Source: Synchiropus picturatus
Taxonomy: Eukaryota
Assembly (NCBI GenBank): GCA_044231675.1
Contig: CM094664.1
Coordinates: 14,168,162-14,232,161 of the forward strand
Length of the DNA stretch: 64,000 nt
Direction: 5' to 3'
Numbering within the stretch: the first letter of the stretch is position 1; the number at the start of each line of letters is the position of its first letter. Positions 1,161 through 43,465 of the stretch are shown one piece after another. The translations under genes were made by a program, and so were the position numbers. A model generated the notes under the pieces. That model was not told the DNA's origin. It saw nothing but the letters and a program-made list of their open reading frames with translations, and did no database searches.

Positions 1161-1245
1161 ATGGATCCGCGGACTAAAACCACCACTGGGATTATTTTTC
1201 AGATGGTCCTGCTCCTCTGGGTCTCACCCCGGACGTCAGGAGAAG
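1161..1245 (+). CDS. cntnap2: CNTNAP-like exon 1: start codon plus signal peptide (MDPRTKTTTGIIFQMVLLLWVSPRTSGE), ends phase 1
   Basis: ATG in Kozak context, hydrophobic core, GTGAGC donor at 1246. Its phase matches exon 2. Confidence 0.65.
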
Positions 1246-1633
1246 GTGAGCGGTTCGTCTGTCCGGTCGGCGTCAAAGTTCCGACTCATTTAGCGCGGTT
1301 TTATCCCGAGTCGGAGCGCTGGTTCTCCTGACCGCGCGGTGATCCGACAGCAGAATTATTCGCGTTGGCAACATTGACTTTGCTGCTCATATTTGCTGAC
1401 TAAACAAGCAGCTCTCCATGATCCGGATCATCGTGGTCCGTGGAGGATCTGAGCTTCGCACCTGAAAGTGGACCAAATCAAACATTGACTCGGCGAAGAC
1501 AGTTCATAACTGCGCGTAAAACCTGTTATCGCCGCGCTGCGTGCGTGTGCTGGGGCGCGTGTTTGAGAAGTGGATTATTGTCTGCTGCTTTTCCCACACA
1601 ATTAATTATCCGCGTCAGCTTCTCTGATCATTA

Positions 1634-1660
1634 ATGCAAATACGCATGTGACGTCACATG
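1634..1660. promoter_or_regulatory. Octamer motif ATGCAAAT (1634-1641) adjacent to 16-bp perfect palindrome CATGTGACGTCACATG (1645-1660) containing a full CRE TGACGTCA flanked by CATGTG/CACATG E-boxes, in intron 1 about 400 bp downstream of exon 1
   Basis: Both motifs read directly from the sequence. They lie inside the promoter-proximal CpG island. Confidence 0.5.
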
Positions 1661-1824
1661 TATCAGATTATCACTGATCTTTCGAGCAGGTGCTGCTTGT
1701 TCTCAGCGTTTACGCAGCATCTTCATCAGTAAAAGCCAGTTGGGGCCGAGCCCGGGAGCACGACACGTTAACCCTTATGGACCTCGAGCGTTCACACGAC
1801 AGTCGCCTCACAAACGCCACCAAG

Positions 1825-1842
1825 GTGTGTGTGCGTGTGTGT
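1825..1842. repeat. (GT)n microsatellite, interrupted
   Basis: gtgtgtgtgcgtgtgtgt. Confidence 0.9.
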
Positions 1843-4800
1843 AGGAGGTAATACTTCAAGTATGCGAGTCTGCAGCGAGCGGATTCCTTCATTCCGGAGC
1901 CAAATGTCACAAGTTTCTTTCACTCCAAAATTGTAAATGTGTGTGTTATACTGTACTTGAGGAGGAACAATAGGACGGACACAGACAGGTGGACTCAAAT
2001 ACACCTTCAACAGAGACACAGCGCTGTCATACACACCACTTCACAGATCCTTCCCACAAATAAAAACCAAGTCAATACACACACTGAAGCAGAGATGTGC
2101 GATATAAACACAGGCAGGAAGCAAGTGCAGGAACACACTGTTGCATTTGGACGTGTTTAAGTCAACACACACCGGCGCCTGTGCAGCTATCTCTGTGGGC
2201 ACATTTCATTGGCTTTCCTCAACCTCTCACCCTCAAATTCTGCAAAAATAAATGGCTAAACTTAACCAGGACTCTGAACCAAACCTATACTCAATCCTAA
2301 TGACCCATTTATTTTGACCTTTCAACCCTCAAACTGAAGGTTAACTCATGGGGACAGGTAAAAATGTTGATGTCCTCTCAAGAGCAGTTGGTGTGTTTCC
2401 AAGAATTGTTCCCCACCAGTATAGCTTAACCAGGTACACTCATTCATTTGGATTCCTCCACTACATTATAGCAGACCTGGGCAAAGTGCGGCCCAGGGGC
2501 CGTATGTGGACCTTTGCCTGTGTTTTTGTGGCCCTCATGAGGTCAGACTAAAACTATAGACTATTTTCTGTCTCGTTTCTTTCTTCGCATTACTATTTCT
2601 ACAGTAATAATAACATTTTCAGGACTAAAATTTCATTTTTTGTTCCTTAAAATACATTGAAAATTGAAATATCTATTTTGAAATTAATTTCCTTTTAATA
2701 TTTCATAGATATGTGTGCTATAGTTTTTTAAATTATTTATATTCAAATTAAATCACATATTAAATTGAATATTTTTATAGGTTTCATGCCATATTTGCTC
2801 TTTTTAATGGTTCATTTCATCCTGGTTACTTAAGATTTTTTTCTGTCACATTTCTTAGTCATTGCCACCTTCCTTTTCACATTTCAAATGTAAATGCCCA
2901 CCTTTGCATTGCACAATCCCCAGCCTCTCACCCTAAACCTACCCATCCAAAAAATCCTGACCTTAACCAGGACTCTGAACTTAAAAGAAGAAGACTTAAG
3001 ACCAATGATAATGACCCAGTTATTTTGACGGTTTAATCCTCAAATTAAGGGTTCAACTTGTGACCGGCCAAAGGTCCCCACAAAGCAAACTATCCTCATG
3101 AGAAGGTTTCCAAGAATTGGTCCCCATAAGTACAGCTAAACCAGATACACAGACACTCTCAGAAAGAGTAGGCACTGGCACGCACAAACCCAACACAAAA
3201 TGCATAACAAACATCACAAGAACGAAGTAGGGCAACCACATATACAACTACACTGTGATACCAGCTTCATAAAAACCCATGGATTTCAAGTGGCAGTCAA
3301 GGCACACACAACAATGAGTGACATAGAGAGTGAGACTTCATACACTGATACTGTAGCATGCTGTGTATATGTGAAGAAACACACGCAAGGGACAGGTATA
3401 TCTACACAAAAACACTCATGGCTATGAAGAAGGACACTGTTGCTAGAATGAAGAAACACACTGTGCACACACATGAATATTGAGAAGCAGAACAGAGGAC
3501 ACACACAGAAGAAGCCCTCACATAGTCGCTACAAACCCACACAAAAACCAAGAGTGGGATGCTACATTGTTAGTGTGTTCATCAGGGTTAGCGGATGTGT
3601 GGCGGCTCATTCGTATCAGAGCAACATGACAAAACTTCAACCCACTGAGAGGCAGAAAACGGGTCGGGATGGAACCACTGTGCGCCGGAACATGGTCCAA
3701 CATGGAGCTACACAACCAAACAGTGAATGTTTGAGTGATGGCGTCCCCTGCTGCTGACGTGCAGATACATATTTGAAGGCCCAGATGGCGCTGCGGGGGC
3801 CCCGGGGTGGCTGGGTAAGAAGATCAGTGCGTGCAGCAGCGACCCGGGGGCGGCCATGTCACAGCAGACGAACACCACGGCCGACACTCGTTCAAAGAGA
3901 TTTGGTTTATGGTGGTTAATTCCATGTTCACGCACCAGGATGGGTGATCTCACATCTGAAACCCCAGTGTTGGTCCCCGGGACACCAGCACATATGAGGT
4001 GCCGTAATCTCACCGCAGGGTCATGCTGGATTAGCTGCCGATCAAGTTTGGAATTGTACACTCACAACATACACACATCCAACTGTGTTTGAAGAAGAAA
4101 AAAAAACATAATTTTCACAAACTGGTTTGAAAACATGTTTATTTTTTCTGTTTATTTTTGCATATTCTACTATTAATTTTTGAAAATAAATATGTAATAT
4201 ATGTTGAATATGAGAAGTACATATTGATATGAAACATATATAAAAAAATTAAAATTATTATTTTTTTCCTCAGAAAAATTCCTCAAACTATAAAACATTT
4301 TTGCTACAGTGTTTATCATAAATACATGCGATCTTCTATATCTGAGTACACCTTGTTCATCTCTGGCGCTGGGGAGCGTAGCAGACCCCTCAGTTGCCTC
4401 TGGGCCTGTTATGATCTGGATAAAGCAGATGGTTGTGATAATGGGGGGCACGAGCGAGTGGGTGTTGTTCTACTTCATTCTCACATCTTCATCCATAATT
4501 GAGGGGCCGGCTGTGATGAAGAGGCTCTTCCTCCTCACCTCCTCCAGTGTGCTGATCACGTTCACTCGGACGCTCGCCTCTGTTCGTGTTCATGCACTGT
4601 GAGATTCACCTCCAAGGCTCAGTAGACCACATCTTTGTTGAAGCTCTGACCTCTGTTGCGCGGTAACGTTTGGCTCGAGGGCCACATGAGACTGTCTCAC
4701 TGAGAATATCTGGCCCTGATCGTCCGTCGTCTGTTTACTGTTTTCACTTCAAATCTTTCCTTTTTTCATCCTTATTCCACTGATATTGAAACTTTTCAAA

Positions 4801-7800
4801 ATAAAAAAAATCTCAGAGTCCGCACCATTGATAAATATTTACACCATTATTTTCTGTTTCTGTTTGTTGCTCCCCCACCCTCCAAAAAAAAAAAAGTCAA
4901 GCCAGAAATGATCTGACGGCTTTAGTTGCTTGTTTTTTCAGCTAGTGAAGTGGAACATTGCAGGTGATAAACAGAGGTTTTCAACATTCTGTTCGTGCTC
5001 CAAGAGTCAGAGGAAAGGAAACAGCAACAACAAGAATTTGAATAAATGCGCTTTAAAACTGTCCGTGGGCATGATGTCATTAGCGTTTGGGCTTCAGATT
5101 ATTCCTCTTTAATTAATCTCCTGGCCGCTGTGAGTCTCCTCTCCAGGTGAAAATTGACAGAAGCAAATGAAAAGAAAGGATGGAGCCTCCCGAGAGGAGG
5201 AAGAGAAACTCCTGACCTGCTAATTTACACAGCAGAGTTTGTTTTGGAACAGAGCAGACACCACCCCCCAGCTCAGCTACCTCACATACCCAGAAATTCT
5301 CAAAGTTATTCTTAAAGTGCTGAATATTTATGACGCAGACGTTAAACAAGAGTTGAATTCAGGACCCAAATGCAGCTCATTTTTCAGTACTCAGAATGTA
5401 AAGACCGGTGTAAGCGCCCCCTTGTGGCTCGTGAGTATAAAAATAAAATATTGAAAATATTTGCGTTGAATATCATATCATAAGAAGAAAGGAAATGCGA
5501 TAGGGTCCATTTAAAATTAAAATAAAAAACGATTGTGAAGAAGGAACAAATGAAACTACACAACAACAATATAAATTAAACAATAAGATATTTGTAAGAT
5601 ATAATATAAAAAATATTATTATTAAATTTATATTTTAAATAGAATTGTACTTGGTCAATATTTATAAAAGGAATACAATTAAAATGATATTGTAATATGT
5701 TGAAAATGGAAACAGAAAAAGAATAAACATAAGGAAATTGAAGTAACAATTACAATATAAAGACATGAAAATAAGGAAGTAACAAAGGATCAAACAAAAC
5801 CAAATGTTAGTTCTAATGCAACATCACTTTGTTGACAGAACGCCCTCGTGAGGCCCACGGGCTGTGTGCTGGACTGAAGTTTGGTCTTGTGGTTTTGGAT
5901 GTCGCTCATGGCGGCACGCCGTCACGCTGAGTCAGCAAATCGAAGGCGCTTTGTTTTGCAAAAATGTGCTTCTTGAATTTAACCGCTAGCACAACCTGTT
6001 GCTGAATATCAGCCAAGTGGCTCCGACTGTCCGCGTGGAACAAAACAGCAGTAGTTTGTTGTGACATCAGCCGACAGTTTCAGCGAAGCCTCTTGTGCAG
6101 TTTGACGGACGCTAGAATGTTGTGGTTCAGAGACCTGCTGTGACTTCAGTGGAACCCTCCCTGCTGTCGACTAGAGACGCGCGCGCCTTGTGAAAGTCAC
6201 AACAAAGCGACATGTTCCTCCGCAGCTCTCTCTCCTCATGACATTTGTTTAGTGCCCCGTCAGAGCCGCAAGCAGGTGGGTCCACGCACCAGAGAGCCAG
6301 CAGACGTCGATCTCACTTCCTGTTAGTGAGAGCGAAGCGCAACATTTGTTTCAATGAAACGCACAGCGAGGCAGTTTTATTGAGATATTCACAGACTATT
6401 CATCTTCCTCTCCGCCCCCAACCAAGTGGCTTTCAATCGAAAGATCTGCGCGTCTCAGAGTTGGGATGACGAGTCCCAGCTAGCCAGGGCACCCGCGGCG
6501 GTATTGATCCCATTGGCGCTCCTTTTGTACTTGGCATTGATCTCAGCTCGCTTTTCTTTGACGTGAAACTGAAGCCTGGATTGATTTGAGGCTCACTGCT
6601 CACAGAAAACAGGGCTGTTAAACATGGTGGTCACGAGTGGTCGTAATAGCTGGATTATTCAGAGTCAGATCAGGAGCTGGAGCGCCCATCACTTCCCGGC
6701 AGAGTGACCAAACATCGATAGGTCGCCGGTTAGCAATTAGCCGCTGATTTGCAGCGAGGCGACGCGCCGACGCCGAATAACAATTATAGAGGGGCCTGAT
6801 CGATGCTGTGTTGAGGTTCCAGTGGTCCAGGTGAGCTGCTCTCGCAGGAGCAAACATGGGAACATAAACACAGGTCGGCTGGCGCACGACAAGAGCCGCA
6901 GCATCTTAATGAGCTTTCTTTTATCTCGACGATCGGGAGCTCTGCGGGCGGAGAACACGTGGAACTAATAAAGATGATAATAATGGAAAGTAAAGAGGCA
7001 AACACGGCAAGGAATTATAGCCTTCTGGGACTGGAGGAATGTGGGCCACGACTCGTGCGTCCACACCGACACCACTTGTCAGTCCAGAGCAGCACTGCTG
7101 TGTTGTGATGCAGCAGGATGGTGAGGTTTCCCTCACTCGTGAACAAGACCCTCAGACACGGACGGGACGTTTCACTCCCTCAAAGCTTCGCCCAGGCTCG
7201 GAGCTGTCAAAGGGCCACTGTTCTTAAGAGGACTCAGGCTTAAACAGACTTAAGGTCCATGTATGCTCAACGTTACATACGGATCTGGATCGTAACTGGA
7301 CGTGGACGTAACTTTCTGCCTTCATTTCGTCCCTATTTCTGCACATTTCCACATATGTTTGTTTTGGAGTTTGTTGTTGTCATTAACTTTTGACTCTGGG
7401 CTGCGCCCCCTGGTGGATATATTGGTGAACAGCAATACCAACACAAATAACACATGGAAACATGTGATCAGTGATGGTAGCATCGTTTTAAATGGATAGG
7501 TAAAGGGACAATAAATGGGCCCTTCAGTTTAAAGAAGTATTGGGGGTCATGTGACAGTGAAAAGGGTCCTTAGTGTGGCACATCTGGTTCCTCAAAAGAG
7601 CTTTGAAGTTCTTCTCCTCCACAGGGAGACTCGAGGTGACCCGTAGTTCATCGCTCTCTCACTCGCTGCGAGGTATATTAGCATCATTAGTCGAGGATTA
7701 TACTCTTAATGTGCCTCAGATTATCTGCCGTGAGGTCGTGATATAAGTGCAGACTCAGCAGATTCTCAGAGGAGACGGACAGCGGTCCAGAGTTGGAGAA

Positions 7801-9912: not shown

Positions 9913-11689
9913 TGAGCTGAGCTCTTCTTTCCCGCCACAGAGCCGTGACATCATCACAGGGTCCCTCGCCTTACAGCAGAAGTTACAGGCAGTAATCATT
10001 TTAATTCGGTGAATTGCTGTTGTGATGGTTTCATTTGCTTCCCCACGCAGCCTCCCACAGCCGCGTCAAACTCTCATTTCTGTTGCGGACTTTCAAGAGC
10101 ACGTCGTTGATTAATGTGGCGCTGTAAAGAGCGCGTGGGCCGCTCGCACTCGCCCGCACACGTGTCAACCATCTGTCACCGCCGGCCCTTTGACAGGAAG
10201 AGAGTCTTTTATTAGACGACTTCTCTTGATGGCTCTTTCTTATTTGATTTGCTGCAGTCGAGACGAGAGAAGGTTTAATTAAAATAGCTCCGAGGTGAAG
10301 TCACACTGGAATAATGCGTATGTATTTATTAAGATGAAGACAATTACATCTGCACTTTATCTCCACTTCCTGCTGCTGACTGGTTTCACTTGAGTTTTAA
10401 TGTGCGTTTGCATGTTTTAGTGCTGATTTTTAATATTATTTATTTGCTTTTTGGAAGTGATTCTATTTCTTTTAGCCAAAATATTTTTCTAGATTCTTTA
10501 GGAACGCTTTCTGTATATTAACATTTTTTTAAGATATAATTTTTGTTTTAATAGTTTAGTATTTGTTACATTTCAAGTTCATTTATTTCCCCCACATTTC
10601 TGGTTCTCAATTTTCTTTTACATTTTTTTCTATTTCCGACTTTTTTTCAGGTCATATACTGTATGTAAATAGATTTACTTTTTTTGATAATCATATTTTC
10701 CTCAATTTTTTTGTGTGAATCATATCACCACATTCTTAGACCACATTTTTTAAGGACATATTTTTTTGTTTTGTTTCACTTTGTTTTGACTAGTTTGATC
10801 TGCTTTTATTACCTTTTTGACTGTTATTTTTCATGTGATATTTATTTGCTTGTCTTAGAAAAATAAAAAATAGATAATTTTAAATTAAAATTAACACAAA
10901 TTTTCCCCCCTCTACATTTTTTTATAAAATAAAAGTTCAAATTTCTGTATTTTCTTCTTAAAATATTTCCAGCTTCTTATTTCACTCACGCATTTCCCAA
11001 CAGGCAATTGTTTTGCTTCTAACAGAATTTTTTTTTTGTGTCTGGTGGTGAAGGAATGTTTTTATGCTATGTTGCTAAGATTATTATCTCCTCGCCTCCG
11101 CAACATGTTCTCTCCTTCCTCCTACAATTCCTCATCAAACTTTCATTCTGAAGTGAAGCCGATCAGTCACAGCTTCACATCTAAACTGAGGAGTAGCTTG
11201 AGAGCCATAAAGAACACGGGTCTCATAATGGCTCTCCTAATTCCTCGCTACTGTCTCTTTGTTGTTTGATCAATCTGCTTTTTCAGCTCTAATGAGTGGG
11301 AATAATGATTTAATGAGTTAGCGGGGGCGGCGGAACACGCTCGGCGCCATATGCCAGACGGAGCCGCCGTCAGATTCCGCCGTCCTCCTCGATTCATTTG
11401 GCGTCAAAGGCGCTAATGAAAGCGCTCCTGCCATGTCTTCACCTTCAGGATATTAGTTAGCGCCACGACGCCCTGCATGCCAATTAATCAATTAACAAGT
11501 GGGCCACGGGCGGCCCGGAACACACACCGCTGCTGCTGAATAATGCAGGAGTCGTAAGCAGCGCGCTTGATACGGCGGATCGCACAGGGAAGTAAATGTC
11601 ACACCTGGAGTCACAACAAGAGTTTGGTCGGCTGCGTGAGGCTTGTTTATCGTGGCTTCGTCGTTCAGCCGAGACGACTTTTACCAAAA

Positions 11690-12380: not shown

Positions 12381-14884
12381 TTACAGTGTTATTCCAAAAA
12401 AACACCTTGCCTCGCTCATCTGGAGTATTTTGTGCGAAACACCTGAGGTTGCGGCGCCTGAGAGGAGAAATGTGAGAGCAGATTCTCTCGCTCACATCTT
12501 TGTCAGGAACTTTAGAGAAGCTGCCAAACTCTGCCGAAGCTATTTCAGGAGGAAGTGGCGAGGAATTATTTGCGGTTCCTTCTGTGTTCTCTGAAAACCA
12601 AGCCTCATTATCCTGCGTCCTGCCATGGAGGAGCAGCGGGCTGGTCTGGTGGAGCTCAGAAGAGCGAGACCTTGTGTTCTCTGCTGTGTGGGGGGAGATG
12701 GATGGAGCTCATCAGTATTCAGGGTCTCCGCTCAGCGCTGCAGGAGCTTCAGACGCAGGTGAGGGAGCGGCGTCTTCAGAGGAGCGTCCGTCCGTCACGT
12801 CCAGAGTGATTGATGGTGTCTGTGAGACCCCCACACTCTTCTGACTCTCACTCTCAATGCCCACTCTGACACAAGGGGTTTTATTCGGGAGAAATGTTTC
12901 TGTGAGTGTCGGTGGAGTCTCAGCTGAACCTGACTCGCACAGGTGGAGACAACATCAGCTGTCACTCACACTGGTGGTGTTACAGGAAACCAAACAACCA
13001 GGTCAGCAGCAGCTTCGACTGCAGAGGCTTCTGTACGTGTGCAGGAGAGAACTTCGCTGGACAGGCTCCAGGGAAGTGGCTCTCACATATGTGTGGTGCA
13101 AATGTGTGTGGGGAAGTGTTTGTTGCTCATGAGATGTTTGTGTGGGAGGATTTCAAGTGTGAAGATAAGGTGTGTTTCCCACACTTCCGAAAATATTTTA
13201 TAGTGCACATGAAGATAAACGTGTGTGTGTGAGGAAAACACCTGAGCAAGGAGGATCACACACACACGTACGCACGCACCAGGCAAATACGTGTGCGACT
13301 TCACTCTCTGATGGAAGAGAGAATCTCTGCACATGGCTGTGTGACGTGAAGATTTTCACTTTCTGCTGTTACATATTGCATCCAGTTGCTTTCACCATCG
13401 ACTCACTTGTTGATGCCGGCTTCAGGGGCCACGACCCTAGATAGCTGGGACACATCACAACTACATGATATAAAAGCCGGAACATAAAGTAGACACCAGA
13501 AATTTGTGAGTGCGGAACAGTAAACGTGCTGACTCGACACCCGGCTGACCCGCAGTCTTTCCGACTGCCGACGCTGTCAAACTCAGAAATGTCAAGATTT
13601 CGGCTGTTAACCCGGCTAAATGCCAGCGGAACACACTTTTTGTTGCCGTACCCTTTTCCAAACCTCCAGTCTGACAGAAGACTGTACGCTGCGGCGGCGC
13701 CGAGTGCTTGGTATTCAGGACGCCGCTCCTCCTATACAGCAGGGGTCACTGCCGAGGGTCAGCGGCAGGCGGCTCCAGCAGGTATCCAACATTTAGCTCC
13801 ATTTTCCTCCCACATGACCGCTGCTCAGTCGGTCGCTGAAATGCCACACTCCGGCGCAGGAGCGGATCTTTCTTTGAAGAGTCGGTTGGCGTCGTGTCTG
13901 ATTCACCTTCACAGCGATGTTCCACTTCAGCTCACCAAGGCGAACCTACGAGTGGAAACTCCACTTGTGAATCCACATGGGATTTCCTGCTCAATCCTGC
14001 TCATGAAACAACTTTGAAAACTTTCACACTTTCACAACTTTCGCACAGCTCCTCCGCTGAATCCAAGCGAGGCTGAACTGCACTAACAGCTCACTGGGCG
14101 GCAACATGAATCATTCACGGCAACAACAAACAGACCTGCTGCGAGAACACAACTGAATCACAAACGACAACACAAGATCATCTGACTTGACATGACTCAC
14201 TTAACACCAGCGCGAGTCACAACATGGAACAATGACTCACAATGACAAATCATTTGTCACTTGACACAACTGTGCGTCACTTCTGAGATCAGTGACTTGT
14301 ACTAAAATGAGTCACATGCCAGAAGATTGAATGAACACTTCTTATACACCTGAGTGAGAAACGTCATGCTAAAACAAAGGACTAGAAGCCTCAATTCATT
14401 CCACAGTGAATCACTGAACATAACAGTGAGTCTCAGCGATCAACCAATCTCAACACTCAGTAACAGCTTATCATGAAGCACAACAGACGAATGATCAATA
14501 ATTGCAACAAGAGCCACGAGTCACAGAAGAAAACGAAGAATCTCGACCCACTGAGTGCATCTACGCTTCACTAACAATGACACTGAATCACTGTGTCAAT
14601 GATAGTGAGTCACTACAGAGTGACTCAGAGATTAACAAATCGTTGAAGACAAATGGTGGAGTTGTGAGTCACAAAGACTCAAACTTACCTGCACAAGAAC
14701 GAATCAGTAAATGATAAAAATCTTCTGACTTGTTAGTGAATGACTCACTTGAATCATGTCAACAATAATAGCTAAACATAATGACTCAACATCTGAGTGG
14801 ACACTACAACAAATCCGTAAACACAATGAGTCATATCCTTGGTGACTCAAACAGATTTGTCTATAGCAGATTTGTGGGCTCTGA

Positions 14885-15058
<174 letters not shown>

Positions 15059-19040: not shown

Positions 19041-19292
<252 letters not shown>

Positions 19293-21877
19293 TGAGAAGA
19301 AAACTGCATTTTCTGTGAGTGCGCCGTCTAGTGGGGGGACGCGGAAATTGCAGCGAACAGTAATGTCATTTTGGAGCAGAGGATCATGGGGATATTAGTA
19401 CTGCTGAGACAAGATAGTGGCTGCATTGACGTGAAAGTTGACCACACAAACCAGTGTCGACCAAGACGCTCGTGAGCCCAGGTCCCACTGCACGAGCTTT
19501 GCAACTCAGCGACGGTTTAATAAGGTGTGCAGTGACTGGCTTGATGGGCTGGATGTGGCCAATTTTTCCTGGTGTGACAGTGGATTGCATGCAGTTTCCA
19601 CAAGCGCGTCTCTTCTCCGCTCTCTGTCCATCAGCAGCACGTGACAGCGTTTGGCAACAGGTGCGCGCAGTCAGCACAAGCCTTCCCTGTGTTCATCCAT
19701 TATTGATGAGAAGTCAAAGGCTGCAGATGAATGTGATTATCCCTGCAGGGAGGGCACTTTCCCGCCGAGACCGCAGCGGCGATCGCCTGTCAATACGAGC
19801 ATCAGTGAAGACGAGACTCTGAGTCCTGCATATTTATCGTGCTGTCCACCAGGAGGCGCTTCTAAAGAGAGTTCCCTGGAGGTGCTTTATTTTAAAGTCA
19901 ACCTTAGCTCCTGTACAAACAGGATGCGGGAAAGTATTTCACCACATTGGCCTTCTTTTAATGATTTTTGAGGAAGGTCAAGATTAGAAACAAAAGCCTC
20001 TCAGAGTTCAACAGCTCAAGGGAACCAAGGAAGGCACTTCATCTCGGCTGAATTAAAAGGTTTTCTTTCCTAAGTGCACTTTTAATGGACCCAAGCTTTT
20101 ACAGACGCGCGCAGAAACACTCAAAGAAATGTTTCTCACGATGTCCTTTAGCAGCTGATGAAGATGAGGGAGAGCTTCACGTTCATCTCTGAGAGTTAAC
20201 ACGCGCTCGCCGTGACATCATCGGCGTGGACGAGCGTTCAAACCAACTTGGAGTGGAGAGCTCTGCAGACTTGGTCCCGGCTCCGAGGATTTGCCCTGCG
20301 AGGAGTCAAACCTTGAAACGTGTTGACGTGATCCTCAGAAGTGTGATCAATCCCAGCGACATTTCAAAGTGTTGCTCAGCCTCCGTGCGAGAGGCTGTCA
20401 GGAGAGAAACCCGAGCCGCCGGCGAGAATAAAGCATCTTAAATGTCTCATCGCAGCCCGAGAAATCGGCCTCTGGATTAACGCGCGGAGGGATATTTTCA
20501 ATTCTCACATGCCGGTTTCTCATGTGTGATTGAAGCCGGGAGGTTAAGATGCATGAAAATAGTTAGTCATGTTAAAGCAGTTTGTTCTTTTTCCTCCCAC
20601 TGGAGACACGCAAACGGTTGAAGTTCGCTGACACACTTACCGACCTGAATATCATATTTGAGGCGTTTAAACTGTGTGAAGTTTATTCAATGTGACGAAT
20701 ACAAGAAGCCGTTCTGAGAACTTTAAGAAGCTTGGAAAGCTCCCTGAAGCTGCAGCAGACTGAGAATAAAAAGGCCCAAATGAGTCTTCAGTACAGATAC
20801 TTTTCGAGCATCAATATTTTAATCAACCTTCAGGAAGACTCGATCCGCCATGATGAAGAATGTCGGGTCCCGAGCGCTGATCCAGGACCGTCTCACTTTA
20901 GAGTCAGAGTGTCCAGTAAACTTCCGACTTGTCGTACGTTGATTCACTTCCACTGCAAACATCAGCTCCAGAGCAGCAGCTCTTGGCTGATTACACAGCC
21001 AATATGCAGATTGAGGCTGTTCGCACTTCTTCAGGCGCCAGTTAACCTGCGAGTCAACTGCAGCGGAGGGAGGTGATGAGAGGCGACGGCCAGATGGAGG
21101 CGATGAGCGAGGCGGAGAGCTGGATTCATCAGAGCCAATATTATTTTAACATCGCAACAATGGAGCTGTCACACGCCATCAAACGCGTTAGATGTAAAAT
21201 TAGATTCCTCTATTTATAAATGGATCACTGACAGTTGTGTCAGGAAATCTTTTTAATCTTCTTCTGTCACGTTGGGAAGAAGTTGCAGCGCACACATGTG
21301 GGCAGCGCAAAACGACATCAGTCAGCGAATCGACACATTTCTGAGTTTCTTAGCTGCATGAGGCTGACATCACTTCCTGTTCCTGTGTATCGGGATGAGA
21401 GTGTGTCAACTGTAGGAGTTGCTGCTTTGTACCTCGGTAGGATTCACTCATTTGGCTGGGACTCGCTTGATATTGTAGAGTCAGAAGAGACTCCAGAAGG
21501 TGGCTGTGGAGGAAGTTAAACCTGGTCAACAGTTAGAGAGACTGACCGCAGTAAATCCATGAGAGTCAGGTGCTTTGAATTCTGCTGATTCAGCATGCCT
21601 TTTGAATATGAACGAGTGTATGGGGAGGCGGAGAGATGAAGGTTGTAGATACACATTTGGCTGACATTTTTGTTGAAGAGGAACTTATTTATGAAGGTCT
21701 AAGAGGAGTGATAACCGATGTAGACGACGATAGGTCCCTTGCTCCTCCTTCAGGCTGTTGATGGGGCCTTAGCTATGAAGCTCCTCCATCAGTGACCTCA
21801 TTGCTCAAGAGAACACTGTATCTTTTCACCGTTAGGAGACGACCGGCCTGTCCTTCTACTGGAGCAGATCTGACTGA

Positions 21878-22326
<449 letters not shown>

Positions 22327-23230: not shown

Positions 23231-25096
23231 ATTTAATCTGAGGATTGTAATTTCATTTTTATTTCAGCCCCTGACCGGCTTTTGTAATCTGCTCTCTTCA
23301 GTCTGATGCCCTTTTGTTTTCCGGCCTCATTATTTCTCCCGCCGACGTCTTCTCCCCTGTCCCCGGCCCTCCTCGCTGTGAGTGTCGGGGTTGTGTAACG
23401 GCTACTGACGGGTCAGCTGCTCAAGTGAAGGATAAGTGGCATCCCAGGAGGCGGCGCCATGCGCCTCGCTGACAGTGCTTTAAAACATTTACATTTAACG
23501 TCAAAAATACATTTGAAGAGCGACAGACTTTTTTTTGTTTTGTGATATATTTTTTTTCAGCCAACTCATCTGGTCTTTATTATACTATATATTATTATTA
23601 TTTATATTATTGTTATTATTATAATATATTTTTCTTCTTATTATTATTTTATTATATTCTTATTATTTATTTATATAAGTGTTAAGAAATGTAATTACTG
23701 TAATTTCCGTACTTGGAGCACACCTGACTTAAGACAAACTGAATATTTGATTCATCTTGCGTGGCTCAAAGGCAGTGAATGACTCATGAGTTACTTGAAC
23801 TCACCACTCAAGGTCACCCAAAACCACAGAAAAAGAGTCATAAACACAACAAGTCACCCTGACCCTTTGACTGAGTTTTGATGTGTCAAGTCAAATATGA
23901 ACGACTCTCTCCAGGAGTGAGACTCATTTGCAGGTCCCTTGCAGCTGACTCCTTCACATTGACCTCCGCGACCACTTGAACCAATGTGGCTCTTCGGCTT
24001 CTCACGGCTTCTAAATTTAAGGAACGACTCCTCTGGGTGTGAGATGTCTGAAAACAACCTGATTCTAATTTCATGTTTCAGTTCGCCCGCCTGTATTTTT
24101 CTTCATTTACTCACAAAGATATAAACCCAAATTGCTGCGGAGACTGGAAACTGCGACTGCAGAGTCGAACCTTTACGTTTATAGTCGCTGATGAAAAAGC
24201 AGTGAAATTGATTTTCGCCGTCTCCCTGCTGGATTGAAGAAAGGAATCACAGGAGAGGACATGAAGAGAAAGAACAGAGCTGTTGAGGCTTCTATATTAA
24301 CATCGACGCTGCGTCGTCTCCTCTCTGCCCTCTGCTCTGCCATCGATCCGTCTTCCAGTCATTCACACAATAATAAAATCACCCCGCGTCAGAAGGCTCC
24401 ACCTGCCGCCCCGTCATGAATATTCCCTCTGTTGGACGCCTAAACTTATTTACCATTAACTTGTTTTTGAGTCTTTGTCAACCGAGACTCCCCGGTGTCT
24501 CAGGCTTCTGCTCAGAAGCATCAAAGCCGCGCTTGTCCAGCGAATCCGTCCTCCTCTTGTGTGTCTGTTTGTCTGAAGTGGTTTCTCCCCCAAGACCGCC
24601 TGATGCATTTTTAATGACTCTGTGTTCAGCTCTTTTCTGCTGCTGCTCTTCTTCTCAGCAGAAACAGAGGGCTTCTTTCCCTCCACTTTGGGGGATTTCT
24701 GAAATGGATCCACTGGCTTGGACGTGAGCTCATCAAACATTAATGTCGTCTGGCGAGCGTCGGTGCTGCGTTTTCCCGAATCATCACATATTAGTGTTGG
24801 TTTTGGCATCTGGGCTTCTGACGCCCTGATTGAGATAAGAAGTGACCGCGGCGAGAACGTCTCACAGGGGCTGAAGAACTTAAATGGTTTGCTTTGAAGA
24901 GCTGAGGCAAGAGATGAAGCTCTTCATTGACCGGTGGATTTTAGTCTCAACACCGTGACCAAAATAACATACAGGTTTTCTGGACTCCAGTTGAGGTGGC
25001 TCTTATCATCGGAATAAAATTGGGACTTCCTAGCTCCAATAATACTGACTGGTAAAAACGGCCGATAAAGTTTGTGTGCTTGTTTACTCTCTGCAG

Positions 25097-25266
25097 GTGG
25101 AGCTTCTGACCCTCGACGTCTCGCCGCCCTCGGCAGCCTTCTGGACGACCAGCACTGGCACCGAGTCGCTGTGGAGCGACGTGGCTCTCTCCTGAACCTC
25201 ACCGTGGACAAGCACGTGGAGAAGATCAAGATCCCAGCAGAGTTCGACCACTGGAACGTGCGTCAG
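25097..25266 (+). CDS. cntnap2: CNTNAP-like exon 6: LamG1 ([57 protein letters not shown])
   Basis: Matches Caspr2 [31 protein letters not shown]. ctgcAG acceptor, GTGAGG donor. Confidence 0.9.
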
Positions 25267-25678: not shown

Positions 25679-25810
25679 CTAAATGTGGGAGGCTTCCTGA
25701 AACCTCACCCGACCAACAAGCCCTTCCACGGCTGCCTGGAGAACCTGCAGCTCAACGGCATCAGCCTGATAGACCTGGCGAAACACGGCGATCAGCAAGT
25801 CACGATGACG
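25679..25810 (+). CDS. cntnap2: CNTNAP-like exon 7: LamG1 end (LNVGGFLKPHPTNKPFHGCLENLQLNGISLIDLAKHGDQQVTMT)
   Basis: Matches Caspr2 FGGIPVPGKP...[26 protein letters not shown]. gtgcAG acceptor, GTGAGT donor. Confidence 0.85.
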
Positions 25811-26326: not shown

Positions 26327-26594
26327 GGCAACGTGACCTTTGCTTGCGCCGAACCCGTCTCCGTGGCGCTCACCTTCCCCGGCCCGCGGAGTTTCCTGCA
26401 GCTACCGGGAGTCGGGGACGAGTCTTCTGGGAGTCTGTCCGCGGGCTTCCAGTTCAGGACGTGGAATAGAGGCGGCCTCCTGCTCACCTTTCAGCTGCCG
26501 CATCGAGGGGGCGTGGCCTGGCTGTACCTGAGTGAAGCCAGGCTGCGCCTTCAGATACACAAAGGCGGACGAGCTCTGCTGGAGCTCAGCACGG
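26327..26594 (+). CDS. cntnap2: CNTNAP-like exon 8: LamG2 (GNVTFACAEPVSVALTFPG...GFQFRTWNRGGLLLTF...ELSTG)
   Basis: Matches Caspr2 GNVTFSCSEPQIVPITF...SFQFRTWNKDGLLLS. ctcAG acceptor, GTCAGT donor. Confidence 0.9.
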
Positions 26595-26740: not shown

Positions 26741-26890
26741 GTTCTGCTCTGAACGACGGTCAGTGGCACTCAGTGGAGCTGAAGTCCAGACGTGGACGTC
26801 TGACGCTCACGGTGGACAGAGAGGAAGGGTCCGGCGCCCAGGCCAGCCCCTCCTTCCCCGTGTCCATGGAAGGCCACATCTTCTTCGGCG
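26741..26890 (+). CDS. cntnap2: CNTNAP-like exon 9: LamG2 (SALNDGQWHSVELKSRRGRLTLTVDREEG...GHIFFGG)
   Basis: Matches Caspr2 [25 protein letters not shown]...YYFGG. ggcAG acceptor, GTGAGA donor. Confidence 0.85.
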
Positions 26891-26951: not shown

Positions 26952-27117
26952 GGTGTCCTGACGACGAGCACGAGTGCAGGAACCCCTTCAACGTCTTTCA
27001 GGGGTGTCTGCGGCTGCTGACTCTGGACCAGTCTGCCGTGGACCTGATCCGAGTGCAGCGGAAACAGCTGGGCCGCTACAGCGACCTGCAGTTCGACATG
27101 TGCGGGATCCTCGACAG
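26952..27117 (+). CDS. cntnap2: CNTNAP-like exon 10: LamG2 end (CPDDEHECRNPFNVFQGCLRLLTLDQSAVDLIRVQRKQLGRYSDLQFDMCGILDR)
   Basis: Matches Caspr2 [37 protein letters not shown]. ccccAG acceptor. The GTCGGT donor is weak. Confidence 0.8.
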
Positions 27118-29761: not shown

Positions 29762-30100
<339 letters not shown>

Positions 30101-31191: not shown

Positions 31192-31990
<799 letters not shown>

Positions 31991-31998
31991 TCTTCTAG

Positions 31999-32193
31999 AG
32001 GAGACCACCTGGATGGTGATCAGGCACAACAACACGGAGCTGACCAGAGTGCGATCGCGAGCGAATCCACACGTCGTCCACTTCAACTACGCGACGGAAG
32101 AGCAGCAGATGTCGGCCGTCCTCGGCCAATCAGACCACTGCGAGCAGGAGCTGTCGTATCAGTGCAGGAAGTCCCGCCTCCTCAACACTCCAG
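31999..32193 (+). CDS. cntnap2: CNTNAP-like exon 13: fibrinogen-like region ([24 protein letters not shown]...SDHCEQELSYQCRKSRLLNTP)
   Basis: Matches Caspr2 [23 protein letters not shown]...[21 protein letters not shown]. ctAG acceptor, GTGCCC donor. Confidence 0.9.
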
Positions 32194-32963: not shown

Positions 32964-33126
32964 AGGGCTCTCCCTCCAGCTGGTGGTCCGGTGGTCCCGG
33001 TCCAGGTCGTCGTCAGAGTTACTGGGCCGGCGCTCAGCCAGGAAGCCAGCAGTGTCGGTGCGGCCTGCAGGGCGACTGCGTGGACCCTCATCACTACTGC
33101 AACTGCGACGCCGACCGCTCCGACTG
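32964..33126 (+). CDS. cntnap2: CNTNAP-like exon 14: fibrinogen-like end (EGSPSSWWSGGPGP...QQCRCGLQGDCVDPHHYCNCDADRSDW)
   Basis: Matches Caspr2 DGTPFTWWIG...[27 protein letters not shown]. tccAG acceptor, GTACTG donor. Confidence 0.9.
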
Positions 33127-33504: not shown

Positions 33505-33632
33505 GAACGAAGACTCTGGTCTGATCACCCACAAGACAAGTCTGCCCGTCAGGTCTTTAGTCTTGGGCGACGTCAACAGACCTGGGTCGGAGGCGGCCTA
33601 CAAGGTGGGCCCGCTGCGTTGCCACGGAGACA
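33505..33632 (+). CDS. cntnap2: CNTNAP-like exon 15: LamG3 start (WNEDSGLITHKTSLPVRSLVLGDVNRPGSEAAYKVGPLRCHGD)
   Basis: Matches Caspr2 [43 protein letters not shown]. tctcAG acceptor, GTAAGT donor. Confidence 0.9.
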
Positions 33633-33684: not shown

Positions 33685-33927
<243 letters not shown>

Positions 33928-35418: not shown

Positions 35419-35718
<300 letters not shown>

Positions 35719-37973: not shown

Positions 37974-38339
<366 letters not shown>

Positions 38340-38383: not shown

Positions 38384-38608
38384 AGGTGTCGGCCAGCTTC
38401 ACGCCACAGACCTCAGTCAGCTACACCTTCAAGGAGCCATACGAGTTGATGAGGAACAGCAGCGCTGCACCGTCCTCCATCTACTCCGACATGACGCTGC
38501 GCGGAGAGAACGTCTCCCTGAGCTTCAGGACCAGCCAGAGTCCAGCTCTGCTGCTCTACGTCAGCTCCTACTACCGAGAATACCTGGCTCTGCTGGTCAA
38601 CAAGCACG
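38384..38608 (+). CDS. cntnap2: CNTNAP-like exon 19: LamG4 start (EVSASFTPQTSVSYTFKEPYELMRNSSAAPSSIYSDMTLRGENVSLSFRTSQSPALLLYVSSYYREYLALLVNKH)
   Basis: Matches Caspr2 [63 protein letters not shown]. tccAG acceptor, GTGAGG donor. Confidence 0.85.
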
Positions 38609-38697
38609 GTGAGGACCTGGGCTGATGCTGCTCTCTGGACATGCACTTCTACCACCAGGTTTTTATGGTGCATCTCTGTGTGCGTGTGTGTGAGAAG

Positions 38698-38831
38698 ACA
38701 AGTTGGAGGTTCGTTACAAGCTGGACAGCAACAAAGATGCCGACGTGTTGAGGAGTCGAGTGAAGAATCTGGCCGACGGGCAGCTTCACTCTGTCATTAT
38801 CCAGCGGCAGAGCCAGAGTGTGTTTGTACAG
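38698..38831 (+). CDS. cntnap2: CNTNAP-like exon 20: LamG4 (DKLEVRYKLDSNKDADVLRSRVKNLADGQLHSVIIQRQSQSVFVQ). The acceptor is ambiguous: tandem gAG|aAG sites, so the alternative start is 38695.
   Basis: Matches Caspr2 [49 protein letters not shown] donor. Both candidate acceptors keep the reading frame. Confidence 0.7.
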
Positions 38832-38834
38832 GTA

Positions 38835-38848
38835 CACACACACACACA
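38835..38848. repeat. (AC)7 microsatellite immediately after the exon 20 donor
   Basis: Direct read. Confidence 0.9.
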
Positions 38849-40589
38849 CGTCTGATACCTTGCTGTAAACAAGTCCAACATCAATAAAGTCGGTGCTAGA
38901 AACAGATGCTAATGGCTGCAGTACAGAGGTCCACTCACTTCCTGTCATGTGACCCCTGTTGACTCCAACTAGAGGAAGTAGATTCTCACGTATATGAGTC
39001 TTACTCACTTCCTGTTGAGTATAGTGAGTCCACAAAAGAGAGTCACCTGAGTTCAGTCAATAGATGCTGCTCTGCTAGTCGACACCTGTTAGCCTGAGTT
39101 GACGGTGCCCCTTGTGGACGATAACATTGTCGACCGGGTTGAGTCGCTTTACTGAACCCTTGTCAGCTGGAGGAGGCCACGGGCAGAGCCAGCACTGGAG
39201 CGCCATAAATCATCTCCAACAATAAACATCACCAACACTATCACGCCGTTTCCTCGTCAGCTGGTAATAAACGCCGTCGTGAACGTTCCGCCGGCAGCGA
39301 CAGTTAATCTCAACTGCCAGAGTTTAATTTTAATTACTGATGAACGATCTGACGCTGGGTAAAACCTGTCGTCTCCACAGCCCCGAGCCAACACTTCAAA
39401 TATGATTTCCAAATCCAACTGCAGACAGATGAAGGCGACGCTCGGTTGTGGGCGGCATTACGAGCTGAAGGAGAAGGTGACCTTGTCTGAGAGTGACGCT
39501 GGCGAGTGGGACTCCCGCGCACCACTCTCCTGCAGCCGCCGCTGCCGTCCGCCACAGTCGCAGTCACCTGAAATGGGCCGTTTTTACTGACTCCAGTGTG
39601 ACTCACTCTGTACCACTAGAGGATTCTGCAGATGTGTGGGACTCTGTGAGTCCAACTTTCCTCCTCTTAAGTTAGTTCAGGCCGTGAGTTTCTGTCGGGT
39701 CGCATGACTGGAGTCATTTGAATTGTGACTCAGGGGTTAATGCGACTGATCTTGACTGTAATATCACACAGCGCTTTGACTCCTCCAGATAAATTAAGAA
39801 TCTCACCGTGCACTCTCCTGCCCATCATCATCCTCCTCATCCTCATCATCCGTGGCGTGTCAGTTACTCAAACATCAGATCCAAGACTTCTTCTGCCTCA
39901 GATCGACTCGGTGGTTCAGGAGCGCTTTCATGTTTCATCTGGGCTGCTCAGCAGGATGGTTATTTTAATGAGTCTCACTGTGTGGTGGGGAGTCAAGGTC
40001 TGCAGTTAAGACTCTCATGAGTTACACGCTGATATTCTTACATTCCGACGCTAATCGGCCAGGAGAGAACCGCACGAGTCAGATTGACTTGGCAGAGCGG
40101 AGAGATTTGTTACATGTTTCTGGCCTGACTCTGGGTCTGCCCTGTGGCCTCCTCCCTGCTGGAGATGCCTTTTGAAATTCCCCCTGGTGAGTCACTCTGT
40201 ATCTTCCATCACCCAAGAATATTTTCCTTTCTGACTCACTGTTCTTAACAGCATCTGAGTCAGACCTCAGGTGCCAAACTTTGTAAGGACTCCCAAGAAC
40301 TTCCTGGAGTTGTGAATCATATCCAGATGCATGGGCATCAGGTGGAACTCTGTGGTTTGACTCTTAAAAAAAGACTCAAACAAAAAATGTGTGGCTCTTC
40401 TTTTGACTCACAAGAACAGACTGTTTTCATGTATCCTTCTAAGACTTCTATATGTGCCGAGCCATCCGAAGCAGACCTGAGTCCCTCGACCTATTGACCA
40501 GGTTTAACCTCCTCCACTGACACTGCAGCACAATGCTCCTGAATAAAAGTGACTCTAAAACTGCTTTAATGACTCTGATTTCTTCTCAG

Positions 40590-40677
40590 ATCGACCAGAA
40601 TCCTGGGGAGGAGTTGAACCTGACAACTGATGGAGAATTCAACGCCATCAAGTCGCTGGTGCTGGGCCGAGTTCACG
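40590..40677 (+). CDS. cntnap2: CNTNAP-like exon 21: LamG4 (IDQNPGEELNLTTDGEFNAIKSLVLGRVH)
   Basis: tctcAG acceptor, GTGAGC donor. Phase links exon 20 (phase 0) to exon 22. Corresponds to Caspr2 [29 protein letters not shown]. Confidence 0.8.
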
Positions 40678-42238
40678 GTGAGCAAGGCTTCAAATCTTGA
40701 ATTTAAATAAGAGTTGTCAGACAGAGAGGAGCATCTGGAGCAGGCTCTCACACGGCTGTAGGTGTGGTGAGTGTTGAGTGAGTCACTGGTGCTCCACACT
40801 AGATCTTCTGTTCCTCCGTGATGTTGCGAGGGTCGACGTGTGAACTGACCCGGCCGTGTCAGCGCGTGCGACCCCTCCTCCCTCCGTCTCACCGGTGCAG
40901 CAGATCAGCAGCAGGAAGTGGATTTTCTGTCTCCAGCTGTCGCCACCGTCGTCCATCAGCCTGACTAATGGACCCATGGAGAGTTTCGGCTTCTCCAGCC
41001 GACACGGTGAACGTCACCTATCAGTCAAGAGAGCAGACGGCGATGCAGCTGGTTACCGTGGTGATGTCGGCCGGCGCAGCTGCTTCGCTGAATGATGGCG
41101 GGATGGAGGAGGAGAGGGGGGAGACATCACTCTTCTGACCTGACAAACACAAGTTTTATTGTGGCTCACGAGGAAATAAACTCAGTCCAGAAGCACCAAA
41201 TCATTATGACCATCTGCTACTGACAGGAGGATCCTCTCGTCTGCTGCCACAACTCTTGTCTATCACTTCCTGCGCGGCTTTTGACTGACATGGAGGCAAA
41301 TAACTCGAAATAGAGAAGTGTAAAATGGTGGCTATTTTTACAAGGAGAAGGAATTTTAGTTTTTTTTATTTATTTTTCGAATTCCTGTTTGTGTTATTTT
41401 CTCATTCATGAAATTAATTTCAATTGATTATTTTATAGTATTTTGTTAGTCATCTAAAACATATATTCATATATATTTTTCTTTCAAAATGTTGTCTTTA
41501 CTTTGGATCATTTCAAGTAATTATGAAGTTATTTGAGGTCTCTTTGTTTTAAATGAATGTGAAATATTGTTTCATTTTGATTTGTTTTCTTCTCTAATTT
41601 CTTATGACTTCTTCTCATATTTCATTGTTGTTTTTATTTTTATGTTTAGTCCCAGTACAATCATTCTTAATTTATGATAGGCCTCTTATTTTTTTGCTTT
41701 GTCCTAAATTTATTATGATTATGTTTATTTTTAGGTTTGTTTTTTCTCATTTTGTGATGTAAATTTTCTTCCATGTGGTATCAGTTATTTTTATTTATTG
41801 TTTTCAACAGAGAAAAAAATAAAATTAATAGAATAAAATATGGAACATGTAGAAAATATTAACAATATTTACTTTTTTTAATGACTTTTCAGGACAGTAA
41901 AGGCATCTGTCGTCTCAGTTCTGACCTGTCAGACAAAGTTCAGGGTCGAGACACAACTGTGTCACAGTGACCCACATTCTAGTGACGCCCAGCGACTCGG
42001 CTGATGCTCTGACTTCCTCTCATGGCTTTAATTAAGCTAAGAAGTTACCCCAACTTTAAGAGTTTATGATTTTGTCTAGAAGCGTGAAATCGGCACCGGC
42101 TCCGGCGCCCAACCATGGAAATGTGAAATTAAACAAGTTTCAAGTTCGCAGAGAAAACCTTTTGAAATGATGAAACTGGGAAAGTTCTGGACCATTTGCA
42201 TTCCTTTCATGTGATTTTCCATTATTGTGTGATTCCAG

Positions 42239-42454
42239 ACTCTGAGGCGCTGGACCCGGACCTGACCCGTCTGGCCTCGCTGGGCTTCACCGGCTGTCTG
42301 TCAGTGGTCAACTTCAACTCTGTCAGTCCCCTGAAGGCTGCTCTGCTCCACCCGGACAGCAGCCCCGTCGTCCTCACGGGGCCCCTGGTCCAGTCCAGCT
42401 GCGGGTCCTCGGGGGCCGGTGACCCCTACTCTGCGGAGAACGTCCACCGACTGT
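42239..42454 (+). CDS. cntnap2: CNTNAP-like exon 22: LamG4 end (DSEALDPDLTRLASLGFTGCLSVVNFNSVSPLKAALLHPDSSPVVLTGPLVQSSCG...ENVHRLS)
   Basis: Matches Caspr2 [56 protein letters not shown]. tccAG acceptor, GTAAAA donor. Confidence 0.85.
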
Positions 42455-43065
42455 CAGGTAAAACCTCAATTTAGATGTTGCAAGTCCTCCAAGACTTGGA
42501 GCTGTGGCCCCACAGATCTATGAGGAGCTCATCCTTTGGGGGTGTGAATGACCCCTGGGAGGCTGCATGTCCCCTCAGACAGGCTGTGATAATGGGTCCT
42601 CCTGAACCAATCCTTGAGGTCTAAGGTCCAAGAATGTGGGGTTACCAGGCCGGTGCATCAAAGTTTGAGGAGTCATGAGAAACACCAAGCAATTGAAATT
42701 GAAACCAAAGCTAAAGCTCAAGGTTCCTTACATTTTTGAGCTCAATCCAGAACTGTGGTGCTCCCACGGGTCCCCACAAGCCCCAGCCACAAGCCCCTGG
42801 ATTCCACCTGAGTCATCCAGGAGGTTCACCAAGCTCCATGTCCAGAATCTTGCTCCAAACCCTGGTACAGAGCATTCAGTTTCTGGCCCCAGCTGCGTGA
42901 AGTTCAGCTGCAGTGGTTTTGCTCTGCTCTCCGCTCTTCTCCCGACCAAGGTGACGTGGAGAGCAGCAACACAACCGCTCAGATCTGATGAGTCCATGTA
43001 GACCTTTATCTACCTTCACCTCAGATTTTCTCCTGCTCTTCTCATTCTCCTCCTCTCTGCTGTAG

Positions 43066-43137
43066 ACCAGTCGGGGTCTCTGGGTTCAGGTCAACCTCTA
43101 GTCAATGCCATGAGGACCGACTCTGCTCTGATTGGAG
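43066..43137 (+). CDS. cntnap2: CNTNAP-like exon 23: juxtamembrane segment (DQSGSLGSGQPLVNAMRTDSALIG)
   Basis: Matches Caspr2 ...TNAVRSDSAVIGG. tgtAG acceptor, GTACTG donor. Confidence 0.8.
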
Positions 43138-43268
43138 GTACTGAACCGTTCTCTGCTATTCTCCCTCGTACATGTAGAACCCTGCCTCTGTTGGTTCTCT
43201 CTCAGATGATTTTGATTCAAAACTCTCAACGTCATTGGAGTGTCAACACCTCGACTGTTTCCCTGCAG

Positions 43269-43465
43269 GAATCATCGCCGTGGTCATCTTCGTGACTCTG
43301 ACCGCTCTGGCCGTCGCCGCCAGGTTCCTGTACCGGAGGAAAGAGACGTATCGGACCCAGGAGGTGAAGGAGGTCCAGCCGGAGGACAGCCAGGAGTTCC
43401 CCTTCAACAACCAGACGGAGCCCCAGAACCCCCACAGGCAAAACCCAAAGGAGTATTTTATTTGA
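43269..43465 (+). CDS. cntnap2: CNTNAP-like exon 24: transmembrane helix plus cytoplasmic tail (GIIAVVIFVTLTALAVAARFLYRRKETYRTQEVKEVQPEDSQEFPFNNQTEPQNPHRQNPKEYFI-stop)
   Basis: Hydrophobic TM helix followed by a juxtamembrane RFLY..K basic patch, as in Caspr2. The C-terminal KEYFI matches the Caspr2 PDZ-binding end. TGA stop at 43463-43465. Confidence 0.9.

Follow-up and report, generated by a model that had tools for sequence, protein, structure and literature searches.

Which contactin-associated protein (CNTNAP, or Caspr) gene lies in a 64,000-nucleotide (nt) stretch of the Synchiropus picturatus genome, and is it intact? The stretch (assembly GCA_044231675.1, contig CM094664.1, positions 14,168,162 to 14,232,161, forward strand), referred to here as the window, was described in an earlier note as holding a complete 24-exon Caspr2-like gene. 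Positions 1161-43465 of its plus strand very probably carry an intact, selectively constrained 24-exon gene of the CNTNAP/Caspr family, which encodes a 1,303-amino-acid (aa) type-I membrane protein and belongs to a teleost-only clade rather than to CNTNAP2.

The obvious plus-strand open segments were concatenated into a single query, which matched 578 database proteins at E <= 1e-20. The best 120 of these 578, compared with the window by tblastn, gave 23 collinear plus-strand blocks that lie between 14.9 and 43.5 kb. Between neighbouring blocks, all frame-keeping GT(GC)/AG pairs were considered and the joined peptide was scored against homologues, finally by semi-global alignment combined with splice-site quality and orthologue read-through; local-alignment scoring was dropped for its exon-trimming artefacts, many references being partial isoforms. 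Exon 1 was placed by hand at the first ATG in the open frame (1161), whose Kozak context is good (CATCATGG). The exon has a single strong donor, GAG/GTGAGC at 1245, which is in phase 1 and fits a strong acceptor at 14934, and the N-termini of four orthologues (P0028, P0031, P0062 and P0111) align exactly to 1161-1244. The resulting gene spans 42,305 nt and has the following exons:

1161..1245, +, exon 1: start codon and putative signal peptide (MDPRTKTTTGIIFQMVLLLWVSPRTSGE), phase-1 donor GTGAGC; four orthologue N-termini
14934..15044, +, exon 2: mature protein start (DVCDSALVS...) and discoidin start; 82% nt identity to plaice
19075..19268, +, exon 3: discoidin (F5/8 type C) domain; homology and Pfam
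21893..22040, +, exon 4: discoidin end
22117..22326, +, exon 5: laminin-G 1 start, after a 76-nt intron
25097..25266, +, exon 6: laminin-G 1
25679..25810, +, exon 7: laminin-G 1 end
26327..26594, +, exon 8: laminin-G 2
26741..26890, +, exon 9: laminin-G 2
26952..27117, +, exon 10: laminin-G 2 end, after a 61-nt intron
29863..29969, +, exon 11: EGF-like 1
31211..31330, +, exon 12: start of the conserved fibrinogen-like linker region; 89% nt identity to plaice
31999..32193, +, exon 13: linker region
32964..33126, +, exon 14: linker region
33505..33632, +, exon 15: linker region
33710..33880, +, exon 16: laminin-G 3 start
35444..35662, +, exon 17: laminin-G 3
38047..38286, +, exon 18: laminin-G 3 end and EGF-like 2
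38384..38608, +, exon 19: laminin-G 4
38698..38831, +, exon 20: laminin-G 4; NAGNAG acceptor 38695/38698, 38698 chosen
40590..40677, +, exon 21: laminin-G 4
42239..42457, +, exon 22: laminin-G 4 end
43066..43137, +, exon 23: juxtamembrane extracellular stalk
43269..43465, +, exon 24: putative transmembrane helix (IIAVVIFVTLTALAVAARFLY), glycophorin C/neurexin IV/paranodin (GNP)/4.1-type motif RRKETYRTQE, C-terminal KEYFI, TGA

All 23 introns are GT...AG, the exon phases chain, and the sole stop is the TGA at 43463-43465. Rebuilt independently of the intervals in the earlier note, the model agrees with it on a complete 24-exon gene of the family, on canonical boundaries and conflict-free phases, on a spliced translation free of internal stops, and on a coding sequence of 3,909 nt. 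That length excludes the stop (3,912 nt with it) and corresponds to 1,303 aa, not to the 1302 aa given previously; either the stop had been counted as a codon or one junction differed by 3 nt. Introns range from 61 to 13,688 nt with a median of 668, the largest being intron 1, for which 13.7 kb had been reported. Chance is excluded as an explanation because the tblastn E-values of single exons lie between 1e-7 and 1e-48 and Pfam Laminin_G_2 matches at 9e-89. Close orthologues are continuous across every chosen junction, including the ambiguous ones at 5/6, 6/7 and exon 20. At 5/6, the quality of the acceptor and the length of the orthologues led to rejection of the alternative pair 22335/25103, and for exon 6 the donor at 25257 was passed over in favour of 25266 (GTGAGG) because orthologues retain the 'xxQ' residues. 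At exon 20 the acceptor is of the tandem NAGNAG type (GAG/AAG, 38693-38698), and use of 38695 would add one Glu; orthologues favour 38698, with P0008 reading NKHDK-LEVRY.

The predicted protein was compared with Pfam by hmmscan, both whole and as nine segments, which gave the following order:

residues 47-173: F5/8 type C (discoidin) domain, PF00754, E = 1e-25
residues 214-333: LamG 1
residues 393-516: LamG 2
residues 546-576: EGF 1
residues 581-800: conserved region (~200 aa) with no Fibrinogen_C match
residues 815-933: LamG 3
residues 956-981: EGF 2
residues 1040-1169: LamG 4

The discoidin structure of human CASPR2 (5y4m) matches at 1.7e-58; the PDB comparison could not settle the paralogue, as the CASPR2 discoidin domain is the only one held there. 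The N-terminus is hydrophobic, and the stretch listed under exon 24 forms a putative membrane span after LamG 4, followed by a 42-aa cytoplasmic tail. The tail carries the juxtamembrane motif RRKETYRTQE (RxKxTYxTxE), compared with RHKGTYHTNE in CNTNAP2, and ends in the hydrophobic C-terminus KEYFI. In Caspr and Caspr2, motifs of the RxKxTYxTxE type, which are of the GNP kind, bind band 4.1 proteins. The domain order and the KEYFI end announced in the earlier note are thus both seen, in the Pfam segments and the model sequence; among the Pfam families it had named for a check, F5_F8_type_C, Laminin_G and EGF were matched, and fibrinogen C was not at E <= 1. The linker region itself is strongly conserved with family members, and PF00147 is also absent from all CNTNAP4/5 matches in the database. 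With its discoidin domain, its LamG-EGF order and its signal, membrane-span and tail features, the product is a CNTNAP/Caspr protein, part of the neurexin superfamily, and the architecture found is that described for the CNTNAP family (PMC10084454). By analogy with the family, it would be a receptor that serves adhesion and scaffolding in neurons. The ectodomain would bind cell-surface partners, which are contactin-type Ig proteins in characterised members, and its tail would recruit 4.1 and PDZ scaffolds and so organise membrane domains or synapses.

Divergence at codon positions 1, 2 and 3 is 0.18, 0.12 and 0.37 from plaice and 0.16, 0.11 and 0.36 from Scortum. Exons 2-19 are conserved with plaice at the DNA level and most intron sequence is not. 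These comparisons show that the gene is under purifying selection. Acanthomorphs hold three paralogues of the clade to which it belongs, and such redundancy could permit a recently inactivated or unexpressed copy that merely looks intact. A pseudogene of this sort is nonetheless highly improbable given the 3,909 nt without stop or frameshift, the canonical state of all 46 splice dinucleotides, a third-position divergence two to three times that of the first and second positions against two species, and the conservation of the cysteine-rich EGF modules and of the tail motifs.

An intact gene of the family may still be any of several paralogues. The best 120 of the 578 homologues consist entirely of vertebrate contactin-associated proteins, with teleosts supplying nearly all of them, and are named CNTNAP4, CNTNAP3 or, rarely, CNTNAP5; no protein named CNTNAP2 is among them. 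Anchor proteins were drawn from an exhaustive representative search, in which the nearest homologue (P0002) served as proxy query, from cluster look-ups and from a profile search. In BLASTP comparisons the model is 70-79% identical to the best teleost 'CNTNAP4/3' proteins, 60.5% to seahorse CNTNAP4, 53.1% to lizard (Podarcis) CNTNAP4, the highest value among tetrapod proteins, 49.8% to emu CNTNAP5 over a partial alignment, 44% to a lamprey protein, 43.8% to tenrec CNTNAP2 and 38% to bichir CNTNAP1. The C-termini of retrieved sequences read ...KREWLI in tenrec and Rhynchocyon CNTNAP2, ...KEYFF in CNTNAP4/3 and ...(K/R)EYFI in tetrapod CNTNAP5, and KEYFI ends 43 of the 120 best, nearly all teleost, matches.

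Two bootstrapped neighbour-joining trees were built from 51 and 48 taxa over 1,268 columns, partial sequences included. Both place the window gene in a teleost-only clade that extends from eel to percomorphs (100 of 100 and 181 of 200 replicates) and that annotation pipelines name 'contactin-associated protein-like 4' or 'like 3'. The clade comprises three acanthomorph sub-clades, with one sea bass gene in each and the sampled Takifugu genes in two. The sub-clade of the window gene (bootstrap 100) includes sea bass P0013, Anabas, Antennarius, Sparus, Labrus, Takifugu P0048 and medaka; the Micropterus match P0045 proved to belong to a different sub-clade and was set aside as a paralogue. The teleosts also have a distinct cntnap5-like group (Channa, Seriola and Cyprinodon). 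On this sequence evidence, the window gene is placed in a teleost-only clade that lies inside the CNTNAP3/4/5 group or beside it.

The Caspr2 label of the earlier note would make the gene a teleost orthologue of CNTNAP2, and it can draw on the 24-exon count and domain order, which are those of the whole family, and on the resemblance of the juxtamembrane motif to that of CNTNAP2. Identity to mammalian CNTNAP2 is however lower than to CNTNAP4 (43.8% against 53.1%), none of the best 120 of 578 matches bears the name, and the window gene joins the CNTNAP2 clade in 0 of 200 bootstraps, though that clade (two mammals and a catfish) includes a teleost. The KEYFI end, offered earlier as a preserved Caspr2 feature, in fact counts against Caspr2 because CNTNAP2 ends in EWLI (KREWLI) and tetrapod CNTNAP5 in (K/R)EYFI, so that the tail is of the CNTNAP5 type. 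The neighbouring gene is ZEB1, which in human lies on 10p11, with CNTNAP2 on 7q35. CNTNAP2 orthology is extremely improbable and, as judged from these comparisons, effectively refuted.

A second possibility, suggested by NCBI and Ensembl names, is that the gene is a teleost co-orthologue of tetrapod CNTNAP4 or of a CNTNAP3/4 ancestor. CNTNAP4 gives the top tetrapod identity, members of the clade are consistently given CNTNAP4 or CNTNAP3 names by pipelines, and no distinct teleost sequence was seen to group with CNTNAP4, whereas a separate teleost 'cntnap5' group exists. Neither tree nests the clade with coelacanth and tetrapod CNTNAP4 (or with CNTNAP3), the nodes concerned having bootstraps of 12-48, and the tail is KEYFI, not the KEYFF of CNTNAP4/3. 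This relationship is a serious prospect, if somewhat short of probable. Grouping with tetrapod CNTNAP5 was likewise not recovered (bootstraps of 20-41 at the relevant nodes).

The gene might instead represent a separate, older ZEB1-linked paralogue, an ohnologue of a CNTNAP5/ZEB2-side gene that was kept in teleosts and lost in tetrapods; human CNTNAP5 and ZEB2 both lie on chromosome arm 2q. The position of the clade outside tetrapod CNTNAP3+4+5, or in a polytomy with them, in both trees, its CNTNAP5-type EYFI tail and tight ZEB1 linkage in two species are consistent with such an origin. The bootstraps concerned are weak (20-69), and the outer position of a fast-evolving teleost clade could stem from long-branch effects. 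All members found for the clade are from teleosts (two sturgeon fragments grouped with CNTNAP5 and CNTNAP1), and no CNTNAP gene lies within 10 kb of zeb1b in Brachionichthys. An older paralogue is thus a rather doubtful reading. The bolder proposition that the zeb1-linked clade is an ancient, distinct vertebrate Caspr, a 'sixth' subtype and not a CNTNAP4/3/5 co-orthologue, retained in ray-finned fishes, lost in tetrapods and mislabelled by pipelines, is unlikely.

Several points weigh against the placement of an intact gene of the teleost-only clade at this locus. The exon boundaries rest on homology and splice consensus, with near-equivalent alternatives at three junctions (5/6, 6/7 and the exon 20 NAGNAG). 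Pfam Fibrinogen_C went undetected in the linker even at E <= 1, where the only match was a sub-threshold one to COLFI, and the putative signal peptide and transmembrane helix were read by eye from the sequence. The deep nodes that link the teleost clade to CNTNAP3/4, CNTNAP5 and the cntnap5-like group have bootstraps of 12-69 in neighbour-joining trees with partial sequences. ZEB1 adjacency was confirmed in one other species only, and was not seen within 10 kb in Scortum or Micropterus.

The neighbour is a multi-exon ZEB1-type (zeb1a-like) gene on the minus strand, which extends from 56,886 to at least 61,578; the 5' end is probably located past 61.6 kb or not in the window at all. Its exon blocks are as follows:

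61578-61471, -, ZEB1-type exon block
60887-60684, -, ZEB1-type exon block
60301-60176, -, ZEB1-type exon block
59936-58245, -, ZEB1-type exon block
58186-58010, -, ZEB1-type exon block
57461-56904, -, ZEB1-type exon block

The gene encodes C2H2 finger clusters at both termini as well as a homeodomain and a PLDLS CtBP motif in a large exon of 581 aa (58209-59954). It is 58-63% identical to teleost proteins named 'zinc finger E-box-binding homeobox 1', '1a' or '1-like', and 35-40% to teleost zeb1b and tetrapod ZEB1. The CNTNAP and ZEB1-type genes stand tail-to-tail, 13.4 kb apart, with ZEB1 the only neighbour in the window. In plaice, a ZEB1 homologue lies ~9 kb downstream of the CNTNAP orthologue on the opposite strand. 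The zeb1 flank in Micropterus contains Tc1-like transposon open reading frames (ORFs) and gaps with no CNTNAP exon, and the 10 kb that flank Brachionichthys zeb1b have no CNTNAP homology. Adjacency to zeb1 is shown only for the sub-clade of the window gene, among the three. The 3' untranslated region (3'UTR) of the ZEB1-type gene (55290-56734, minus strand, directly after its stop) holds eight 7-mer seed matches of the miR-200 family in ~1.5 kb (three CAGTATT and five CAGTGTT), where window-wide frequencies predict ~0.3. Blocks at 54797-56843 are conserved with plaice, reaching 96% identity at 56192-56245. This cluster is the known ZEB1/miR-200 arrangement.

How compact is the CNTNAP gene? The human CNTNAP2 gene has 24 coding exons in a 2.3-Mb locus, and the earlier note had set the window gene against that span. 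The resulting ratio of ~55x is not like-for-like because different paralogues are compared. Against great-tit CNTNAP5 (268 kb) and Komodo-dragon CNTNAP4 (253 kb), the like-for-like sauropsid genes, the window gene is ~6x smaller, so that a teleost gene far smaller than its tetrapod relatives is borne out at that lower ratio. Among fishes, the stretch from the intron-1 block to exon 19 takes 37.5 kb in plaice and 25.9 kb here, and exons 6-24 take 49.8 kb in Scortum and 18.4 kb here; the same exons are therefore 1.5x and 2.7x tighter. The Micropterus paralogue spans at least 50 kb. The previous argument for a compact teleost genome gains weak support from this tighter packing (1.5-2.7x), which fits a smallish genome; one gene cannot establish genome size.

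Beyond the exons, intron 1 contains three blocks (11421-11514, 12650-12730 and 13742-13808) that are collinear with plaice at 78-84% identity. In the 12.7-kb block, an ATG at 12702 (MELISIQGLR...) corresponds to the start annotated for plaice P0055 (MELIGIQGLR...), a protein without a signal peptide. This block was rejected as an alternative coding first exon, since its best donor (12758, GTGAGG) does not keep the frame into exon 2 and its peptide has no signal sequence; it could be an alternative non-coding 5' exon, a promoter or an intronic enhancer. Two short blocks in introns 3 and 5 (19617-19749 and 24593-24679) match the plaice locus at 75-76% identity. Because the plaice match of the first is inverted, that block is probably a shared repeat and not an element conserved in place. 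In intron 12, positions 31331-31990 are CT-rich, strongly GC-skewed and of low complexity, with several plus-strand frames (S/L/P-rich) open and continuing from exon 12; the stretch has no homology to any CNTNAP protein and was left out of the model.

The window has a eukaryotic appearance: its ORFs are short and fragmented, microsatellites occur, and Rfam gave no match across the whole window. Twenty stray ORFs (intronic, intergenic and ZEB1-overlapping) were scanned with Pfam. Five of the six that overlap ZEB1 match C2H2 zinc-finger or homeodomain families, and the other 15 of the 20, including all the intronic and intergenic ones, have no Pfam match. Between the CNTNAP and ZEB1 genes, a minisatellite at 49863-50496 has a 45-nt unit in a 180-nt higher-order repeat, with ~14 copies and 84-87% matches. 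It is open on both strands, with ORFs of 220 and 192 aa made up of 'GSHTPPSESLQGLQM' repeats; the 220-aa ORF has no Pfam match, the 192-aa ORF being outside the scan.

Taken as a whole, the locus holds an ordinary teleost CNTNAP gene, and many fish genomes already have annotated genes of this kind. The correct label is that of a cntnap4/3/5-group gene and not Caspr2, so that the gene is not taken for a fish model of the biology of autism or epilepsy linked to CNTNAP2. The exon-level gene model can be used as given, and the size comparison should be corrected from ~55x to ~6x against like-for-like tetrapod genes. The relation of the ZEB1-linked teleost-only clade to tetrapod CNTNAP3/4/5 is a matter of gene-family bookkeeping rather than surprise. 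Public annotations of the two orthologous loci are defective: the Scortum barcoo gene (CM041533.1, L005) is annotated as two separate models (793 aa and 803 aa), and the Pleuronectes platessa model (OX374660.1, L002) begins at the intron-1 block and ends after exon 19 beside a 200-N gap. Such defects may explain the many database entries below 1,200 aa for this clade.

Among known relatives, mammalian CNTNAP2 has the common family architecture and a similar juxtamembrane motif of the 4.1-binding type, but it differs in its clade, its 43.8% identity, its EWLI end, its length (1,319-1,344 aa in two mammals) and its much larger locus. Tetrapod CNTNAP5 (Caspr5) belongs to the CNTNAP3/4/5 group, the closest group to the window gene, and has a (K/R)EYFI end and a similar length (1,306-1,310 aa); it differs in identity (49.8% for emu, partial alignment), in its juxtamembrane sequence (LYQHKQSHRTNQ) and in gene size (268 kb in great tit), and teleosts have a separate cntnap5-like group. 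Tetrapod CNTNAP4 (Caspr4) provides the top tetrapod identity (53.1%, Podarcis) and is the source of the pipeline name for the teleost clade, whereas CNTNAP4 and CNTNAP3 end in KEYFF, CNTNAP4 shows no supported grouping with the window gene, and the Komodo-dragon CNTNAP4 gene spans 253 kb. The nearest relatives are teleost proteins named 'contactin-associated protein-like 4' or 'like 3' (Sparus aurata A0A671VXK1, P0002; Dicentrarchus labrax A0A8C4HPN6, P0013; Pleuronectes platessa P0055), which are 70-79% identical over >1,000 aa. None exceeds ~79% identity, so that neither the source species nor a near relative is represented in the proteins listed, and the plaice and Scortum orthologues are less compact. 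These proteins share with the window gene its sub-clade (bootstrap 100) and its KEYFI end, and the plaice orthologue also has exon-by-exon DNA conservation and the same tail-to-tail arrangement with ZEB1.

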